From: a virus
Virus genome (UHGV): UHGV-2150566
Reading direction: 5' to 3' (one strand)
Length of the DNA: 16,926 bases
This document shows positions 637 to 16,926 of the stretch, in pieces. Position 1 is the stretch's first letter, and the number at the start of each line of letters is the position of its first letter. The position numbers and the translations under genes are program-made. The notes below the pieces were generated by a model. That model was not told where the DNA came from. It was given only the letters and a program-made list of their open reading frames with translations, and made no database searches.

Positions 637-1017
637 ATGACCGAACGCATAGAATTTGTTTTGCCTTACCCGCCGACGGTGAACACTTACTGGCGACGCC
701 GTGGCAGCACATATTTTATCTCGGAGGAGGGAAAGCGTTATCGCCGGGCTGTGGCGCTTATTGTTCGCCAGCAGCGGCTGAAATTAAGCCTGTCCGGAAG
801 GCTGGTAATCAGGATTATTGCAGAGCCACCGGATAAGCGTCGTCGTGACCTGGACAATATTCTGAAAGCACCGCTGGATGCGCTGACGCACGCGGGGTTG
901 TTAATGGACGATGAGCAGTTTGATGAAATCAATATTGTACGTGGCCAGCCAGTATCTGGTGGACGTCTGGGGGTGAAGATTTACCCCATAATGCTTGAAG
1001 GGCAGGTCAAAAAATGA
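637..1017 (+). CDS. rusA: crossover junction endodeoxyribonuclease RusA (Holliday junction resolvase)
   Basis: 126-aa translation aligns along its length with E. coli RusA as recalled, including the catalytic acidic cluster PDKRRRDLDN and LDDEQF. Position upstream of Q is typical. Confidence 0.85.
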   Translation: MTERIEFVLPYPPTVNTYWRRRGSTYFISEEGKRYRRAVALIVRQQRLKLSLSGRLVIRIIAEPPDKRRRDLDNILKAPLDALTHAGLLMDDEQFDEINIVRGQPVSGGRLGVKIYPIMLEGQVKK

Positions 1018-1835
1018 AACTGGAAGATTTACCGAAATACTACTCCCCAAAATCCCCCGGCCTGACTGATGCATCGGCCTCAACGTCGAAAGATGCGCTG
1101 AGTATCACTGATGTGATGGCCGCGCAGGGCATGACACAGAATCGGGCTGAGATGGGGTTTTCTGCGTTCCTTGGGAAAATGGGCATTAGTATGAATGACA
1201 GAGAGCGGGCAACAGAATTGCTGACAGAATATGCACTCAGTCGGTGTGATCGCGTGGCGGCGTTAAGAAAACTCCCGGCAGAAATAAAACCGGCAGTGAT
1301 GCGTATTATGGCTTCGTATGCGTTTGAAGATTATGCCCGTAGCGCGGCGAGCAAAAAACAGTGCCCCTGCTGTCACGGAAAAAAATTTATTGAAAGCGAG
1401 GTTTTTACAAACAAGATCCAGTATCCGGATGGTAAGCCGCCAGTGTGGGCAAAGTGCACAAAAGGCGTGTATCCGTCTTACTGGGAGGAATGGAAAAAAG
1501 TCAGGGAGGTGGTAAAAGTTGCCTGTCCGGAGTGTGGAGGGAAGGGAGAGGTATCCACTGCCTGTAAAGATTGTCGTGGGCGCGGTGTTGCCATTCATCG
1601 TGAAGAGTCGGAAAAACAGGGTGTGCCGGTTTTCAGAAACTGTCAGCGTTGTGGTGGGCGTGGCTATGAAAGATTACCTTCAACGGAGGCATTTAATGCC
1701 ATATGTAATGTAACCGATGCCATATCTCTTGATACATGGAAAAAAACAGTTAAACGTTTTTACGATACGCTGGTGGTGCAGTTTGATATTGAAGAAGCAT
1801 GGGCAGAACAACAACTGAAAAAGGTGACCAGATAG
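1014..1835 (+). CDS. Q: late-gene antitermination protein Q (QuuQ/YdfT-like, zinc-binding)
   Basis: 273-aa ORF overlapping the rusA stop (ATGA at 1014-1017). Four CxxCxGxG-type knuckles (CPCCHGKKF, CPECGGKGE, CKDCRGRGV, CQRCGGRGY). Followed immediately by a lambda-PR'-like promoter and a short-leader intrinsic terminator. Confidence 0.8.
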   Translation: MKLEDLPKYYSPKSPGLTDASASTSKDALSITDVMAAQGMTQNRAEMGFSAFLGKMGISMNDRERATELLTEYALSRCDRVAALRKLPAEIKPAVMRIMASYAFEDYARSAASKKQCPCCHGKKFIESEVFTNKIQYPDGKPPVWAKCTKGVYPSYWEEWKKVREVVKVACPECGGKGEVSTACKDCRGRGVAIHREESEKQGVPVFRNCQRCGGRGYERLPSTEAFNAICNVTDAISLDTWKKTVKRFYDTLVVQFDIEEAWAEQQLKKVTR

Positions 1836-3489: not shown

Positions 3490-3565
3490 GGCCCTTTAGC
3501 TCAGTGGTGAGAGCGAGCGACTCATAATCGCCAGGTCGCTGGTTCAAATCCAGCAAGGGCCACCA
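3490..3565 (+). tRNA. ileZ: tRNA-Ile2 (anticodon CAU, lysidine-type; ileX/ileZ-like)
   Basis: 76-nt cloverleaf: acceptor GGCCCTT / AAGGGCC, anticodon loop cuCAUaa, T-loop TTCAAAT, 3' CCA encoded. Near-identical to E. coli ileX as recalled; differs clearly from elongator and initiator tRNA-Met. Confidence 0.85.
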
Positions 3566-3574
3566 TATCACATA

Positions 3575-3651
3575 CCGCCATTAGCTCATCGGGATAGAGC
3601 GCCAGCCTTCGAAGCTGGCTGCGCGGGGTTCGAGTCCTCGATGGCGGTCCA
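3575..3651 (+). tRNA. tRNA-Arg (anticodon UCG; argN-like)
   Basis: 77-nt cloverleaf: acceptor CCGCCAT / ATGGCGG, D-stem GCTC/GAGC, anticodon stem CCAGC/GCTGG with loop cuUCGaa, T-stem CGGGG/CCTCG with loop TTCGAGT, CCA encoded. Unusual C1-G72 first pair. Confidence 0.7.
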
Positions 3652-3929
3652 TTATCTGCATTATGCGTTGTTGGTTCTGATGAGTGAATCATTGTCTTTT
3701 GAGCAACAGGCTATCATATAAGATAGCCTCAGACTTCCTTGTTTATTCTCGCCGGATGCTTCGTAGATATTTGCAGGCATCTGTATGCAGGGGTATTATT
3801 GCGGCATATATCATCCGGAAAAATAAAAACTACATGCTGATCCGGAGATGATAGTTACAAGTCCTCCCGGATCCCGCATATTTACTATATTTTATAGATA
3901 ATTGTTCTTGTTAATATGGAGATGGATAA

Positions 3930-4358
3930 ATGTATTGCCGTGCTGTACCAGTTCTTGTTTTGATATTAGCCAGTCTGACAACTGGCTGCACAAAAGATGT
4001 ATCGACAAATAATTATGATGCTTCTCTGTATCACTCAGATAAATTAATAAAGTCGCAAAATTTGAGCTCATCGGAACGTACCCCTGATGCCAGTGAAGAA
4101 ATCAGGCAGTATGCCATTCAGGTCAGGAAAGCCATAGAAGAACAGTTAAAGGATGCGAGTAAGTATTCAGGAAAAGAGTGTTCACTGAGAATGTATATGG
4201 CCCCGAATGGTCTTCTGCTACAGGTTAAAAGAGAAAGCGGTGATCCCGATTTATGTCGTGAAGCGATGAATGCAGTAAAGAATGCTGATATACCATCACC
4301 ACCGTCTTCAGGAGTATATAAAGCATTTAGAAATGGCGTGCTGGATTTTAAACTCTGA
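3930..4358 (+). CDS. signal-peptide (lipobox-like LTTGC) protein with TolA C-terminal domain (TolA-III)-like region; prophage moron
   Basis: RBS GGAGA before ATG 3930. N-terminus MYCRAVPVLVLILASLTTGC is a signal peptide with a lipobox-like Cys. The C-terminal ~85 aa (IRQYAIQVRKAIEE...GKECSLRMYMAPNGLLLQVKRESGDPDLCREAMNAVKNADIPSPPSSGVYKAFRNGVLDFKL) align colinearly with the C-terminal domain of chromosomal TolA as recalled. Visibly AT-richer than its neighbours. Confidence 0.7.
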   Translation: MYCRAVPVLVLILASLTTGCTKDVSTNNYDASLYHSDKLIKSQNLSSSERTPDASEEIRQYAIQVRKAIEEQLKDASKYSGKECSLRMYMAPNGLLLQVKRESGDPDLCREAMNAVKNADIPSPPSSGVYKAFRNGVLDFKL

Positions 4359-4674
4359 CAGGGGGAGAAGATTTTCTCCTGTCCTGATGATTTTGGGGCG
4401 CTGGAAAGATATTGTGCTGTGAAGTGTTAAATTCCTCACAACTCAGTAAGTTGACAGTTGCCTGTCAGACTGAGCATTTGTTAAAAAAATTTCGCATGGT
4501 GAATCCCCCTGTGCGGAGGGGCGACTGGTGAACGGTATGATCTCTTTGATGATCGTAAGCGAGAATATGCGGGTTTAGTGTCACCGGGCTGAACTCACCG
4601 GGAGGCACCCGGCACCATGCAATGGCACATAGCGCCACTCTCCAGCCCCTCTCCGGAGGGGCTTTCTTGTGGGC

Positions 4675-4701
4675 AAAAAAAAAGCCCGAGTGGGTTCGGG
4701 C
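4675..4701 (-). terminator. rho-independent terminator in minus-strand orientation
   Basis: On the + strand an A9 run precedes stem GCCCGA / TCGGGC with loop GTGGGT; read on the minus strand this is hairpin plus T9. Confidence 0.45.
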
Positions 4702-4756
4702 AACAGCATGAGATATACATTTTTATAATCGAATGGATTTTAACCAGAATTCATAA

Positions 4757-4781
4757 GGCTGCGCAACTGCGCGGCCTTTTT
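4757..4781 (+). terminator. rho-independent terminator (+ orientation) upstream of nanS-p
   Basis: Stem GGCTGCGC / GCGCGGCC (8 bp, one G-U), loop AACT, followed by TTTTT. Confidence 0.45.
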
Positions 4782-4883: not shown

Positions 4884-6872
4884 ATGACATTTAAACACTA
4901 CGATGTGGTCAGGGCGGCGTCGCCGTCAGACCTTGCGGAGCGACTGACACAAAAACTGAAGGAGGGGTGGCAGCCATTTGGCAGCCCTGTCGCCATCACG
5001 CCTTATACCCTGATGCAGGCCATTGCGGCGGAAGGTGATGTCACCACACCTGTGGTGGTGAAGCCGTCGGATGGAGAAGGCACAGTTATCAGCACCACCA
5101 GCGAACCGGAGTATTACTTTGTTGTTGTTCTGGCGGGGCAGTCAAACTCGATGTCTTTTGGGGAAGGGCTGCCGCTGCCGGAGACATATGACCGTCCGGA
5201 CCCGCGTATTAAACAGCTGGCGCGTCGCAGTACGGTGACGCCGGGTGGTGCCGCCTGTAAATATAACGACATCATTCCGGCAGACCACTGTCTGCATGAT
5301 GTGCAGGATATGAGTAACCTGAATCATCCTGAAGCGGACCTTAATAAAGGGCAGTACGGTTGTGTGGGGCATGCTCTGCATGTTGCCAAAAAGCTGCTGC
5401 CGTTTATGCCTGCGAATGCGGGTATCCTTCTTGTTCCATGTGGCCGTGGCGATTCGGGATTTACTGCGGGGGCCGAGGGGGCGTTTAACGCAGCGTCGGG
5501 AGCGACCGCAGGCTCGTCCCTGTGGGGGGCGGATAAACCGCTGTATTATGACCTGGTCAGCAGAACCCGTGCGGCCCTGAAGAAAAATCCGAAGAACGTG
5601 CTGTTATCAGTGATTTGGATGCAGGGAGAAAAAGATGTCAGTTCGGGGAGACATGCAGAACACAATGCGCTTTTCCTTGCCATGGTAAATCAGTTCCGTA
5701 CGGAACTGGCAGATGTGGCAGAGCAGTGTACTGGCGGGACAACGGCCAGCGTCCCGTGGATTTGCGGTGATACCACGTACTACTGGAAGGAAAGGTATGC
5801 AGCGCCGTATGAGGCGGTTTACGGTGGGTATAAAGGCAAAGCTGCGCAGAATATTCACTTTGTGCCGTTGATGACGGATGAGCATGGTGTGAATGTGCCG
5901 ACAAACGAGCCGTCAGAAGATCCGGACATTATCCCGGCGGGATACTATGGCGCTGCGTCACGCACTGCCAGTAACTGGACGTCAGCCGATCGTAAAACGC
6001 ACTTCAGTTCATGGGCGCGAAGAGGCATTGTTTCAGACCGCCTGGCAGGTGCCATTTTGCAGTACGCCGGGCGGACATTATCGTTCCTTACCGGGCAGAG
6101 CGCACCGCAGTCGGGTGGTACAACTCCCGGTGATGATGTCAGTCCGGGGGTACCGGGTGTTGAGAAACCGCAGGATGGCGGTGTTGCTGGTACTGGTCAT
6201 GATGAGGCCGTGAGCAGTACCAGGACGGTGGCTGAATATGATGCGAACAGTGGAAATGGTGTATGGACAGAGCAGCAGTGGGGGGCTGCCGGTGGCAAAG
6301 GCACTGTGACTGATGACGGTGGACGGAAAGCGCTGCGACTGGAAAAACAGCCCGGTAAACTGACGTCCTGGAAAATGTTCTGTACTGTTGCAGTGGAGGA
6401 GGCAAAAAATCTTCTCAGCAAGGGGGGTGAAATTGCCGTACGGTTCAAAATTCCGGATGGAAGCGAACTGGTGAACGGACAGTTTGTCTTTGGTCTCTAC
6501 TGGCCGGTGTCGCAGTGGGCGTCAGGCGCGGCAGCAAACAGTATGCTGGCATCATTCTTCCTTCAGACGGATGCATCAAATCTGAATCTTATGCACCACA
6601 AGGGCACGTCGAATGCACAACTGGGTACATTTGGTGCGTTTGACCATAACTGGCATACGGTTGTTTTCCGCTTTGCGGGAAATAACAGCGAAAGAGTCGT
6701 TCCGGTGATTGATGGTACAGAGCAGACGGCGTTTGACCTTGTGATGTGGACAAATGATGGCTTTACAGCAGATACGCTGACGCTGACAGATATCACGGGG
6801 GCAAAAGCGACGTATCCGGTACTGCTTGATACGGTCACAGTCAAAGTTAACGAAAGCCGGGCATCATCATAA
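4884..6872 (+). CDS. nanS-p: prophage-encoded sialate O-acetylesterase (NanS-p-like: N-terminal DUF1737-like region, SGNH/SASA esterase core, C-terminal putative carbohydrate-binding region)
   Basis: 662-aa ORF with RBS GGGAGG. N-terminus MTFKHYDVVRAASPSDLAE and esterase motif VVLAGQSNSMSFGEG match the NanS-p family found between the stx slot and lysis genes in EHEC prophages, as recalled. Confidence 0.8.
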   Translation: MTFKHYDVVRAASPSDLAERLTQKLKEGWQPFGSPVAITPYTLMQAIAAEGDVTTPVVVKPSDGEGTVISTTSEPEYYFVVVLAGQSNSMSFGEGLPLPETYDRPDPRIKQLARRSTVTPGGAACKYNDIIPADHCLHDVQDMSNLNHPEADLNKGQYGCVGHALHVAKKLLPFMPANAGILLVPCGRGDSGFTAGAEGAFNAASGATAGSSLWGADKPLYYDLVSRTRAALKKNPKNVLLSVIWMQGEKDVSSGRHAEHNALFLAMVNQFRTELADVAEQCTGGTTASVPWICGDTTYYWKERYAAPYEAVYGGYKGKAAQNIHFVPLMTDEHGVNVPTNEPSEDPDIIPAGYYGAASRTASNWTSADRKTHFSSWARRGIVSDRLAGAILQYAGRTLSFLTGQSAPQSGGTTPGDDVSPGVPGVEKPQDGGVAGTGHDEAVSSTRTVAEYDANSGNGVWTEQQWGAAGGKGTVTDDGGRKALRLEKQPGKLTSWKMFCTVAVEEAKNLLSKGGEIAVRFKIPDGSELVNGQFVFGLYWPVSQWASGAAANSMLASFFLQTDASNLNLMHHKGTSNAQLGTFGAFDHNWHTVVFRFAGNNSERVVPVIDGTEQTAFDLVMWTNDGFTADTLTLTDITGAKATYPVLLDTVTVKVNESRASS

Positions 6873-15150: not shown

Positions 15151-16926
15151 GTGTTGTTGTTTCGGGGACGCTGAAATCTCCTGATGGTGAGGCAATATCA
15201 GGCGCAAATATTACCCTGACGGCGCTGACAGTTTCACCGGATGCGCTCAGCGGCACCAGTGCGTCAGCAGTGACTCGTGACGGCGGGTATTACGGAATGA
15301 CGCTGGAGCCGGGGGAGTATGCGGTTTCTGTGACGGTGAAAGGGAAGACTGCTGTCTACGGACGTGTGCGTATTGAGGGGACTGAAAGTACGGTGACGCT
15401 CAATATGCTGTTACGCCGCAGTCTTGTTGAGGTGAGCATACCCGGAGAACTGCTGACAGATTTCCGGCAGATACAGAACAATGTGGCGGATGACCTTGCC
15501 ACGATTCGTCGTCTGAACGAAGACACGGCGGTGAAAAATAATCAGGCTTCACAGTCGAAGGAAAGCGCTGCTGCCAGTGCGAAGACTGCATCAGAAAGCG
15601 CGAAGGCTGCGACCAGCAAAGCGACGGAGTCTGCACAAAAAGCCAGTGAGGCTGCAGAGGCGGCGACCCGGGCAGGTGAGTCTGAAAAGGCAGCGGCAGC
15701 TGACGCTAAAGAGGCCAGACGACATGCTGAAACCGCCAGAGTGGCTCAGGAGGCCGCCGGAGACGTTCTTAAACGTGCTGAGGCTGCTACAGTTAGTGCT
15801 GAAGAAGCCAGACGTATGGCTGAGAATGCACGAGGACCTAAAGGCGATACAGGGCCGAAAGGTGATGCTGGTCCTCGTGGTGAAACAGGTCCGGCGGGTC
15901 CGCGTGGGGAGAAAGGTGAGCAGGGAGAGCGCGGACCTCAGGGCATACCGGGCCAGAAAGGTGATACAGGAGAACGGGGACCTCAGGGAGTACAGGGGCC
16001 AGCTGGCGCAACAGGGCCATCTGGCCCACGTGGTGCGACCGGGCCACAGGGAGCAATGGGGCCGCGTGGTGAAACCGGGGCCAGAGGCGAAAAAGGAGAC
16101 CCGGGGGGGCCTCAGGGACCAAAGGGGGATACTGGTCCGAGAGGTGAGCCGGGGCCGGCAGGAGCAAAGGGAGAGCGCGGTGAGACCGGACCTGCGGGGC
16201 CGAAAGGTGACACCGGCCCACGTGGAGAGGCCGGACCACCCGGACCACAGGGTCCGGCAGGGCAAACCGGCCCGAAAGGGGATAAAGGTGAACCCGGCGC
16301 AACAGGTCCGGCAGGTCCCGCAGGCCCTCGGGGAGAAACCGGCCCCGCAGGTCCTGCGGGTCCCGCAGGCAGTGTCGCCAGTGTTCCGGATGCCAGCACA
16401 TCACAGAAAGGTGTTGTACAGCTGAGCAGCGATACCAACAGCGATGATGAAACAAAAGCGGCAACCCCAAAGGCTGTGAAAGCGGTAATGGCAGAAGTGC
16501 AGGCAGCAAAAACGAAGGCAGAAGAGGCAGCAACCCGGGCAGCAGTCCCCGGACCGAAGGGGGACAGGGGGGAACCTGGCGCACCTGGTGCAGTGGGGCC
16601 CGCAGGCCCACGGGGACCGGCTGGTGCAGCTGGTCCCAAAGGTGATGCAGGCCCGGCAGGCCCTGCGGGTAAAACGGGGCCACAGGGCCCTGCCGGAGGG
16701 CGAGGGCCGATGGGACTGCCCGGGTTGGATGGTAAAACCGGACCACAGGGACCACAAGGGCCAACCGGAAGGCTGGTACCCGGGGAAATTTACAGCATCG
16801 GAACATACATTATTGCCGCACTAGCCCCGTATACAACCGACATCGGCAGAACCTATCAGCCAGGAGAAACTGTACAGGGTTCACGCCTTAAGCGATGCGC
16901 CATAATCAAAGATGCAAGCGGGAACT
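15147..16926 (+). CDS. tail fibre protein with collagen-like Gly-X-Y repeats (3' partial, continues beyond window)
   Basis: Frame open from GTG 15147 (GGAGG 7 nt upstream) to the window end. Missing from the ORF track because no stop lies in the window. N-terminal transthyretin/CarboxypepD_reg-like motif ([20 protein letters not shown]), Ala/Glu-rich coiled-coil segment, then two Gly-X-Y blocks separated by a non-collagen spacer. Confidence 0.8.
15834..16370 (+). repeat. collagen-like Gly-X-Y coding repeat block 1 (about 60 triplets by my count, one register interruption at a G7 tract)
   Basis: Manual translation gives [37 protein letters not shown]... through [10 protein letters not shown]; homopolymeric G7 at 16103-16109. 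Confidence 0.8.
16551..16769 (+). repeat. collagen-like Gly-X-Y coding repeat block 2 (about 24 triplets)
   Basis: Translation [73 protein letters not shown]. Confidence 0.8.

Follow-up and report, generated by a model that had tools for sequence, protein, structure and literature searches.

Introduction

Why would a phage genome carry, in the place where related phages carry the Shiga toxin (Stx) genes, a copy of a single domain of a host envelope protein? The question is raised by a gene in the virus genome UHGV-2150566, of which a stretch of 16,926 nucleotides was analysed (that whole stretch is called the window throughout). The gene encodes 142 amino acids, and its product combines a predicted lipoprotein signal peptide and a short linker with a copy of the third, C-terminal domain of Escherichia coli TolA (TolA-III). 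An earlier note on the same DNA, made from the sequence without database searches, had described it as a prophage moron encoding a periplasm-targeted mimic of TolA-III. The gene is not a one-off: it belongs to a widespread family whose members are already annotated 'tolA'.

From profile and structure searches, a comparison of alleles and their neighbourhoods, and a survey of more distant relatives, we hypothesize that the protein is a motor-uncoupled decoy or dominant-negative competitor that makes the prophage-bearing cell tolerant of Tol-dependent invaders; we put the chances of this being right at about even. The support is circumstantial and consists of the conserved beta3 edge of the domain, the pairing of such proteins with the C-terminal domain of TonB (TonB-CTD), the linkage of two relatives to bacteriocin genes, and purifying selection.

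Results

A TolA-III domain without the rest of TolA

The C-terminal part of the protein matches Pfam family PF06519 over profile positions 7-96 of 96 (E=5.7e-23; 81.4 bits against a gathering cut-off of 25). A phmmer search of the PDB retrieves the E. coli TolA-III structures 1S62, 3QDP, 2X9A and 1TOL at E-values of about 2e-25, with residues 54-141 aligned to TolA 333-420, and the ungapped alignment of the two proteins is about 50% identical across 88 residues. The earlier note had drawn this likeness from a TolA sequence that agrees with the actual one, and had named a profile search and a structural superposition as ways to check it; both bear the likeness out. In an AlphaFold2 model, residues 52-142 have predicted local distance difference test (pLDDT) values of 72-92, and the N-terminal 51 residues are predicted to be disordered (pLDDT <50). 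The best Foldseek match of the model is chain 2X9A_B (template-modelling score 0.88, target-normalised; root-mean-square deviation 1.8 Å; 51% identity), and all matches with E <1e-3 are TolA-III. The model has the features of the TolA-III fold: an alpha/beta arrangement with a three-stranded sheet, the cysteine pair, and an exposed beta3 edge. Both cysteines, Cys84 and Cys109, are invariant in nine full-length alleles, and each position is 96% Cys in 49 representatives of the wider lipoprotein family described below.

The remainder of TolA is missing. The NCBIfam TolA models align by their last ~90 positions alone (297-386 of 387 and 266-361 of 362), from which it follows that domains I and II are absent and that the protein is not a working TolA. 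In place of the transmembrane domain I stands a cleavable lipoprotein signal peptide, and in place of the Ala/Lys/Glu-rich helical domain II there are 31 residues, predicted to be disordered, between Cys20 and the domain. The earlier note's statement that a protein lacking the transmembrane and long helical parts cannot replace TolA is in keeping with these alignments, and an orthologue or paralogue of TolA able to take its place is ruled out. The RefSeq name, 'tolA: cell envelope integrity protein TolA', was presumably given because the score for TIGR02794 (75.9 bits) exceeds the cut-off of that model (59.45); the score for PRK09510 (103 bits) lies below its cut-off of 213. The window protein lacks three of the four features that define TolA (domain I, domain II, and a place in a tolQRA-tolB-pal operon) and has only the fourth, domain III; the name is misleading for these 142-residue proteins. 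The protein also matches PHROG family phrog_5772, annotated as of unknown function, over positions 2-127 of 128 (E=1.4e-57).

A predicted outer-membrane lipoprotein

The open reading frame (ORF) begins at the first in-frame ATG past a stop codon and, as the earlier note had said, is preceded by a ribosome-binding site of its own (Table 1). Its product starts M-Y-C-R-AVPVLVLILASL-TTG-C20, with a basic residue (R4), a 12-residue hydrophobic core (A5-L16) and then L16-T17-T18-G19-C20, which fits the PROSITE PS51257-type pattern; the lipobox-like ending noticed from the sequence was therefore a sound observation. The Thr at -3 is atypical, whereas the lipoboxes of the remaining two E. coli classes of allele are canonical (GIIIGC and CLTAGC); Cys20 is unchanged in 9/9 full-length prophage alleles.

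The residue at +2 is Thr21, so that Asp, the Lol avoidance signal, is absent. In E. coli a residue other than Asp at this position sends a lipoprotein to the outer membrane, and sorting to the outer membrane is therefore predicted. The product of the window gene is accordingly predicted to be an exported, lipobox-bearing lipoprotein anchored in the outer membrane, and of the earlier description as 'periplasm-targeted' the export signal stands, while a protein free in the periplasm gives way to one predicted to be anchored.

The strand-addition edge

Three ligands of E. coli TolA, namely the N-terminus of TolB, colicin N and the N1 domain of the phage protein g3p, bind by beta-strand addition to beta3 (A415-K420), and D418P or K420P abolishes the contacts with TolB, colicin N and g3p and produces a full tol phenotype (PMC4339652, PMC7391070). 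The window protein reads G-V-L-D-F-K at this place, L138-D139-F140-K141 corresponding to TolA L417-K420, and these four residues are invariant in the prophage alleles. Their frequencies are L.67, D.71, F.92 and K.51 in the 49 lipoprotein representatives, and L.65, D.32, F.98 and K.46 in 57 full-length TolA proteins; LDFK is kept in the lipoproteins at least as well as in TolA itself. Among the positions of alpha2 that were mutated in TolA because alpha2 is a region of g3p contact (PMC4339652), residues I58, Y61, A62, Q64, I69 and E70 are the same as in TolA. Colicin A engages a different strand of TolA, beta2, through the box 375-LLDIKP-380 (PMC4339652). The generic edge for strand addition is thus retained, ligand specificity not being readable from the letters alone.

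Close relatives and selection

Of 5426 complete E. coli genomes, 895 contain a gene of the same type as that of the window (type 1, at >=80% nucleotide identity), 123 of them at >=95% identity and 772 at 80-90%, nearly always as a single chromosomal copy. Type-1 genes fall into three allele classes with 100%, about 72%, and about 66% amino-acid identity. Five alleles spanning the three classes are each exactly 142 amino acids long, with no insertions or deletions, and the ratio of nonsynonymous to synonymous substitution rates (dN/dS) of the domain is 0.25-0.40 among them, from which we conclude that the gene is under purifying selection; for the linker the ratio between allele classes is 0.33-0.81. 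Recombination is visible in one allele, which is a mosaic. Public assemblies repeatedly contain type-1 variants with a frameshift (P0019-P0029; 157-163 amino acids) that end in ...RRKYIKYFKMGCWILNPDIYCFVINGFGLGLF and lose alpha3 and beta3, which suggests occasional inactivation or else sequencing errors.

The neighbourhood of the gene was surveyed at 83 loci from IMG/VR, RefSeq and Shigella, 82 of them with recognisable neighbours. In every one of the 82 the gene lies on the late strand, with the Q side to one flank and the holin and lysis side to the other, which answers in the affirmative the earlier question of whether homologues sit between Q and the lysis genes. Two architectures occur: one in which a DNA methyltransferase gene, tRNA genes, the TolA-III gene and a NanS-type gene follow one another, and one in which the TolA-III gene stands between Q and a 131-residue gene followed by the holin. 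Only 1 of 50,697 deposited phage genomes (mEp460_ev081) has a type-1 homologue, as against 16% of complete E. coli genomes, and given this scarcity in phage collections the carrier prophages may seldom be isolated as free phage. A search of the viral structures in BFVD gave no significant match, that is, no viral protein there with the TolA-III fold, and a scan of GTDB species representatives with peptide patterns, which were narrow, found just one Shigella locus.

A wider family of TolA-III and TonB-CTD proteins

When 1.8 billion cluster representatives were searched exhaustively with HMMER, 303 matches were obtained, full-length TolA and many proteins of 115-160 amino acids at 32-48% identity among them. 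Among the 86 representatives of <=170 amino acids, 47 pass a simple lipobox test (most others being fragments or near-misses of the regular expression), and Asp is found at +2 in none of these. Lipoproteins with this architecture form about 50 deep clusters. Recent, repeated capture of host tolA is rejected as the origin of these genes: a rough neighbour-joining tree, of low resolution since it was built on 90 residues, shows one tight clade of full-length TolA and many deep lipoprotein clades. Many of the short lipoproteins retain [VI]DD[LI]F..L..GK, a motif that precedes domain III in E. coli TolA (DDIFGELSSGK) and is degenerate in the window protein; from it the family seems to derive from the last ~130 tolA codons fused to a lipoprotein signal.

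One relative accompanies the window gene's own type. In mEp460-type prophages a second gene (type 2) lies directly 3' of the type-1 gene and encodes a 131-residue TolA-III lipoprotein ('FVAGC'; PF06519, E=1.3e-14) that is 27% identical to the window protein (locus L002, 6870-7265, phage mEp460_ev081). Plasmids of the pO157-like IncF kind carry a gene with 88% DNA identity to that of the phage, placed after psiB-psiA-hok in their leading region (L088, 5947-6378, plasmid pTA130; 143 amino acids as annotated). Type-2 genes occur in 1269 of the same 5426 genomes; 825 of their sites are chromosomal and 525 are on plasmids. By tblastn, proteins with the TolA C-terminal domain are encoded on about 1300 plasmid records, 672 of them from Klebsiella and 549 from E. 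coli.

Some of the genes occur together with genes for bacteriocins or for TonB domains. On 10-kb ColRNAI plasmids of Klebsiella, such as one of 10,060 bp from Klebsiella pneumoniae (L086, 2725-3458), the gene for a TolA-III lipoprotein ('LLLTAC') is directly followed by one for a periplasmic TonB-CTD, whose start it overlaps; the bacteriocin of this plasmid is cloacin-like, with a Cloacin T domain, an E2 R domain and an rRNase domain, and is of a Tol-dependent type. At L097 (6193-8414), within an island that also has phage-like genes for replication, about 0.5 kb separates the gene for a 137-residue TolA-III lipoprotein from that for a ColA_N pore-forming colicin. An E. coli G1/2 prophage (L001), whose type-1 gene is 100% identical to that of the window, carries after its Rz genes, where lambda has bor, a gene for a 108-residue TonB-CTD lipoprotein ('LVMGC'; PF03544, E=1.3e-14; 15988-16314); this second gene is absent from the window and present in 415 of the 5426 genomes. 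On IncR plasmids of Klebsiella (L087, 4173-5202) and on a metagenomic contig (L099, 367-2049), the TolA-III lipoprotein gene is preceded by one for an exported thioredoxin-fold protein (DsbA/TraF-like), a neighbour that fits the need for disulfide formation in the TolA-III domain. Other relatives lie beside dinI downstream of icd, and some in ordinary chromosomal neighbourhoods.

The cassette and its surroundings

In blastn comparisons, homology of the window to the Stx2 phage P13374 ends at 3706 and restarts at 4436, and stx2A/B occupy the matching gap in that phage, as the earlier assignment of the gene to the stx-equivalent slot would have it; the junctions with the stx-less phage phi296 are at 3672/4403, so that the edges of the cassette vary with the relative (left between 3672 and 3706, right between 4403 and 4436). 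The guanine-plus-cytosine (GC) fraction is 0.38-0.44 within the gene and cassette and 0.50-0.60 in the flanks, in agreement with the AT-richness that had been noticed. The cassette is a compositionally foreign insert in the stx slot, between segments that are adjacent in relatives. No direct repeats that might explain its insertion were found flanking it, and Rfam detected no structured RNA within it.

The upstream region contains fewer sigma-70-like sites than its own shuffles. Between allele classes the sequences upstream of the gene cannot be aligned, and the perfect TATAAT that the mEp460-type allele has about 33 nt 5' of its ATG lies in a region not conserved in the window allele. The hairpin just past the stop codon was not called by a terminator scan, and the strong hairpins at 4644-4663 and 4755-4778 fall within the segment common to Stx phages. 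By synteny the gene must presumably be co-transcribed with the Q-dependent late operon. Of the label 'moron', the foreign-composition insert in the slot is upheld; the promoter and terminator of its own that the word implies are represented by weak or unconserved candidates.

Table 1. Coordinates of the TolA-III lipoprotein gene, its parts, and its landmarks in the window
Feature	Position	Strand	Basis or remark
Coding sequence, 142-residue TolA-III lipoprotein	3930..4358	+	Stop codon included; ORF, profile and PDB matches
Ribosome-binding site GGAG	3918..3921	+	8 nt 5' of ATG; from sequence
Signal peptide and lipobox L-T-T-G-C (predicted)	3930..3989	+	Cys20 codon 3987-3989; Thr21 at +2
Flexible linker or tether, residues 21-51	3990..4082	+	AlphaFold2 pLDDT <50 for residues 1-51; no Pfam match
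TolA domain III, residues 52-142 (E. coli TolA 331-421)	4083..4355	+	Pfam, phmmer, AlphaFold2, Foldseek
Cys84-Cys109 codon span	4179..4256	+	Codons 4179-4181 and 4254-4256; TolA Cys363-Cys388 disulfide pair by alignment
beta2 segment L96-L-Q-V-K-R101	4215..4232	+	TolA colicin A box 375-LLDIKP-380 by alignment; box per PMC4339652
beta3 strand V137-L-D-F-K141	4338..4352	+	TolA P416-K420; strand-addition edge for TolB, colicin N and g3p in TolA
Weak sigma-70-like match TTTGCA-18-TATTAT (9/12)	3770..3799	+	130 nt 5' of ATG; candidate only
Hairpin just past stop codon, U-poor tail	4360..4383	+	dG -15.8 kcal/mol, z = -1.5; weak terminator candidate
AT-rich cassette in stxAB-equivalent slot	3706..4436	.	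blastn against P13374 (L003) and phi296 (L004); GC profile
Q antiterminator, left landmark	1014..1835	+	Pfam PF03589, E=5e-52; annotation of identical locus L001
Two phage tRNAs left of cassette	3490..3651	+	3490-3565 and 3575-3651; CAT anticodon (RefSeq tRNA-Ile) and Arg-TCG
NanS-p-type SASA esterase, right landmark	4884..6872	+	Pfam DUF1737, SASA and DUF6645

The window is a lambdoid late region that opens with DUF968, RusA and the Q antiterminator, with a hairpin-plus-T-run at 1918-1933 just past Q. A small ORF, a DNA methylase gene, the two tRNAs, the TolA-III gene, the esterase gene, DUF1378 and DUF826 follow, then a P21-type holin, lysozyme and Rz/Rz1, and finally packaging and head genes; the place between the phage tRNAs and nanS-p had been read correctly from the sequence. 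Its structural module shares 99.6% identity with Escherichia phage PhiR12_3 and 88-94% with phages that convert to Stx1 or Stx2 production, and the element is therefore a Stx-phage-like prophage without stx.

A masked N-run at 2430-2504 cuts the 5' part of the methylase ORF; at the identical locus L001 the gene in this place spans 1059 bp. Window 3652-3706 lacks the third of the tRNAs found in Stx phages (Arg-TCT, argO), and homology to phi296 ends at 3672, just past the second tRNA. Directly right of the cassette, in the segment common to Stx phages, lie the small RNA STnc100 at 4465-4674 on the plus strand (Rfam, 179 bits, full length, its 3' end being the strong hairpin at 4644-4663) and an AsxR-like anti-small RNA at 4679-4731 on the minus strand (63 bits, equal to the gathering score; the AgvB model gives 43 bits, below threshold). 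At 15577-16806 there are long overlapping ORFs in several frames on both strands, rich in Gly/Pro/Arg repeats; these suggest a collagen-like Gly-X-Y tail-fibre gene, and in matching phage records the annotation at this place is a tail fibre protein.

Discussion

How the protein might act

In the mechanism that we propose, the gene product would be exported and, after lipidation at Cys20, delivered to the inner side of the outer membrane, and the mature protein would consist of a flexible tether of ~31 residues and a folded, disulfide-bonded TolA-III copy. Lacking a membrane anchor and helical domain II, this copy cannot couple to the TolQR motor. It keeps the two exposed edges of TolA-III, beta3 (used in TolA by the TolB N-terminus, colicin N and g3p) and beta2 (used by colicin A), and its tether would place it at the location of TolB-Pal, where the translocation domains of colicins also emerge. 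There it may bind the epitopes by which group A colicins and g3p engage TolA, and perhaps the N-terminus of TolB as well; energised TolA would then fail to draw these ligands in, and the prophage-bearing cell would be tolerant. Over-produced periplasmic TolA-III reportedly gave cells that were tolerant of group A colicins and of Ff phage, and leaky (work attributed to Levengood-Freyermuth, Click and Webster in 1993 and to Click and Webster in 1997), and a periplasmic TonB-CTD is reported to block FhuA- and FecA-dependent uptake (Howard et al. in 2001).

The co-occurrence of TolA-III with TonB-CTD, together with the two bacteriocin linkages, points to a blockade of import rather than to a remodelling of the envelope as the common purpose, since what the two domains have in common is colicin and phage import, not envelope stability. 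At a larger scale, it is conceivable, and we suggest it tentatively, that plasmids and prophages of the Enterobacterales widely deploy exported, mostly outer-membrane-anchored C-terminal domains of TolA and TonB as an 'import blockade' immunity to bacteriocins and phages. On this reading, to which we give somewhat less than an even chance, the class would lie hidden under the names 'tolA' and 'TonB family protein', would be found in about one in five E. coli genomes and on some 1300 of the plasmids sequenced, and would count the window gene among its members.

Several observations weigh against the decoy hypothesis. Over-produced TolA-III harms the outer membrane, so that the protein would come at a cost. 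Within alpha2, a g3p-contact region, the window protein differs from TolA by N338R, N339Q, G342I and S346K, and the colicin A box reads LLQVKR instead of LLDIKP; because of these changes and an identity of only 50%, binding to any given ligand is uncertain. The dissociation constant of TolA and TolB is about 40 uM, which is weak (PMC4339652), and titrating TolB would consequently take much protein. The gene lies in a Q-dependent late operon and may not be expressed in the lysogen, the sole sigma-70-like match being weak and 130 nt upstream. The ordinary chromosomal neighbourhoods of some relatives mean that a housekeeping role for the family is possible. Finally, the literature on superinfection exclusion, decoys, klebicin plasmids and TolA homologues of phages and plasmids, searched also for the accession WP_000271631, yielded no functional study of this protein or of any relative, in a coverage that took in few subscription journals and could have passed over an older report. 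A paper on Tol-Pal evolution does not mention such lipoproteins, nor does a 2024 review of superinfection exclusion mention TolA-III lipoproteins (PMC11436027); one published list of cloacin-plasmid genes includes 'TolA' and 'TolB family' genes, without more. In PADLOC the window protein matched 0 families, and four relatives likewise matched none.

Weighing other explanations

The position of the gene invites the idea that it acts against its own host late in infection: transcribed mainly from pR' after induction, its TolA-III domain would compete for TolB, switch Tol-Pal off, and weaken or vesiculate the outer membrane. We regard this, the main rival of the decoy hypothesis, as unlikely; the supposed benefit would be to lysis, to the release of progeny, or to the release of co-expressed cargo such as NanS-p, with colicin tolerance as a side effect. 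The invariable place between Q and the holin, endolysin and Rz genes (82/82 assessable loci) speaks for it, as does the want of a convincing promoter or terminator belonging to the gene; stx, the usual occupant of the slot, owes its main expression to Q, and periplasmic TolA-III is said to cause leakage and hypervesiculation (effects credited to Levengood-Freyermuth in 1993 and to Henry et al. in 2004). It has also been reviewed that vesicle production could be regulated by modulating TolB-TolA or TolB-Pal contacts (PMC7391070). An envelope-weakening role is, however, hard to reconcile with relatives in places that have no lysis module (the leading region of IncF plasmids past psiB-psiA-hok, IncR plasmids, chromosomal sites), and it leaves the pairing with TonB-CTD unexplained; the phage, moreover, already has a full set of holin, endolysin and Rz/Rz1, and the Sec/Lol traffic of a secreted lipoprotein would probably take minutes late in infection. 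Alternatively the tethered domain could benefit the host with no decoy role, tuning TolB-Pal or CpoB and with them bile, detergent or serum resistance or vesicles, in the manner of lambda Bor. A lipoprotein in the classical moron position, the chromosomal, non-mobile contexts of part of the family, purifying selection and a conserved TolB-binding edge would all suit such a modulator, which we nonetheless consider decidedly unlikely: published manipulations of motor-uncoupled TolA-III reportedly worsen envelope function, and neither the linkage to bacteriocin genes nor the TonB-CTD partners would be accounted for.

A decoy might also be aimed at Tol-dependent invaders other than colicins and Ff phage, such as tailed phages, tailocins, or perhaps relatives of the carrier phage. 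Two tandem, divergent TolA-III lipoprotein genes (27% identical) in mEp460-type prophages suggest different specificities, and the deep diversification of the family is as expected under an arms race; yet we know of no tailed coliphage that needs TolA, and think this version very unlikely. The 2024 review likewise lists no TolA-requiring tailed coliphage (PMC11436027). That the gene is merely a decaying fragment of a captured tolA, a pseudogene under a wrong name, could be argued from the RefSeq name, borne by a protein with the last domain only, and from the recurrence of frameshifted variants that lose beta3. It is hardly credible in view of a complete signal peptide and lipobox, which TolA lacks, a length fixed at 142 amino acids with dN/dS of 0.25-0.40 in five alleles of three classes, a presence in 895/5426 complete genomes, and about 50 deep clusters that share the architecture; a dead gene fragment is rejected on dN/dS, fixed length, and the conserved lipobox.

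If the decoy hypothesis holds, a common prophage cargo would determine how E. coli, including Shiga toxin-producing strains, fares against Tol-dependent colicins and filamentous phages, with a bearing on strain competition in the gut, on colicin- and phage-based control of pathogens, and on hosts for phage display. It would be a natural defence by copying of a host domain (receptor-domain mimicry), with a parallel in TonB, and would supply natural dominant-negative probes for research on Tol-Pal. Meanwhile the RefSeq name 'tolA' hides the family from catalogues of defence genes.

Comparison with known systems

The window domain shares its fold, disulfide pair and beta3 LDFK edge with E. coli TolA-III (~331-421; 1S62, 3QDP, 1TOL, 2X9A), and differs from it in lacking TolA domains I and II, in following a lipoprotein signal and a short disordered tether, and in being encoded in a prophage late operon instead of tol-pal. 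Laboratory constructs of periplasmic TolA-III, such as those reportedly made by Henry et al. in 2004, were likewise uncoupled from the motor within the envelope, and the phenotypes predicted here are theirs (tolerance, leakiness and vesiculation). Those constructs were soluble, whereas the window protein is natural, 50% identical to the host domain, and predicted to have a lipid anchor in the outer membrane.

Cor (phi80, N15 and mEp167) and Llp (T5) are likewise small phage outer-membrane lipoproteins that act from the periplasmic side against the entry of phages or colicins; Cor is listed in PMC11436027, and Llp is described in bioRxiv 10.64898/2026.03.26.714494. They inactivate one receptor, FhuA, and are not copies of host proteins, whereas the window protein mimics a domain of TolA, an energy transducer of the host, and its target would be the ligand or TolB. 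Neither Pfam nor PADLOC indicated homology of the window protein to Cor or Llp. The immunity of Ff-infected cells mediated by g3p, which Boeke, Model and Zinder are said to have described in 1982, makes cells tolerant of colicins and of superinfection through the same interaction of TolA-III, g3p and colicins, in mirror image: the Ff phage makes the ligand, g3p, and the window element makes a copy of the receptor domain.

The late-operon morons of lambdoid phages (stxAB, bor, lom, nanS-p) are also cassettes of foreign composition between Q and the lysis genes, and Bor too is a small lipoprotein. Their cargo is unlike that of the window gene, for which the promoter and terminator are weak candidates; the classical definition of a moron, as given in PMC3594210, includes both. 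The TonB-CTD proteins (WP_000828068.1 of a prophage, WP_072354022.1 of a Klebsiella plasmid) have the same design, in which the C-terminal domain of an energy transducer is exported free of the anchor, and are built around another domain (PF03544); one is a lipoprotein and one has a signal peptide of the signal-peptidase-I type. The phenotype predicted for the window protein extends the artificial-construct experiments of the 1990s and involves no new principle. The novelty lies with the mobile elements, which appear to do the same naturally and at scale, with domains of both TolA and TonB, and in the slot of the stx toxin genes.

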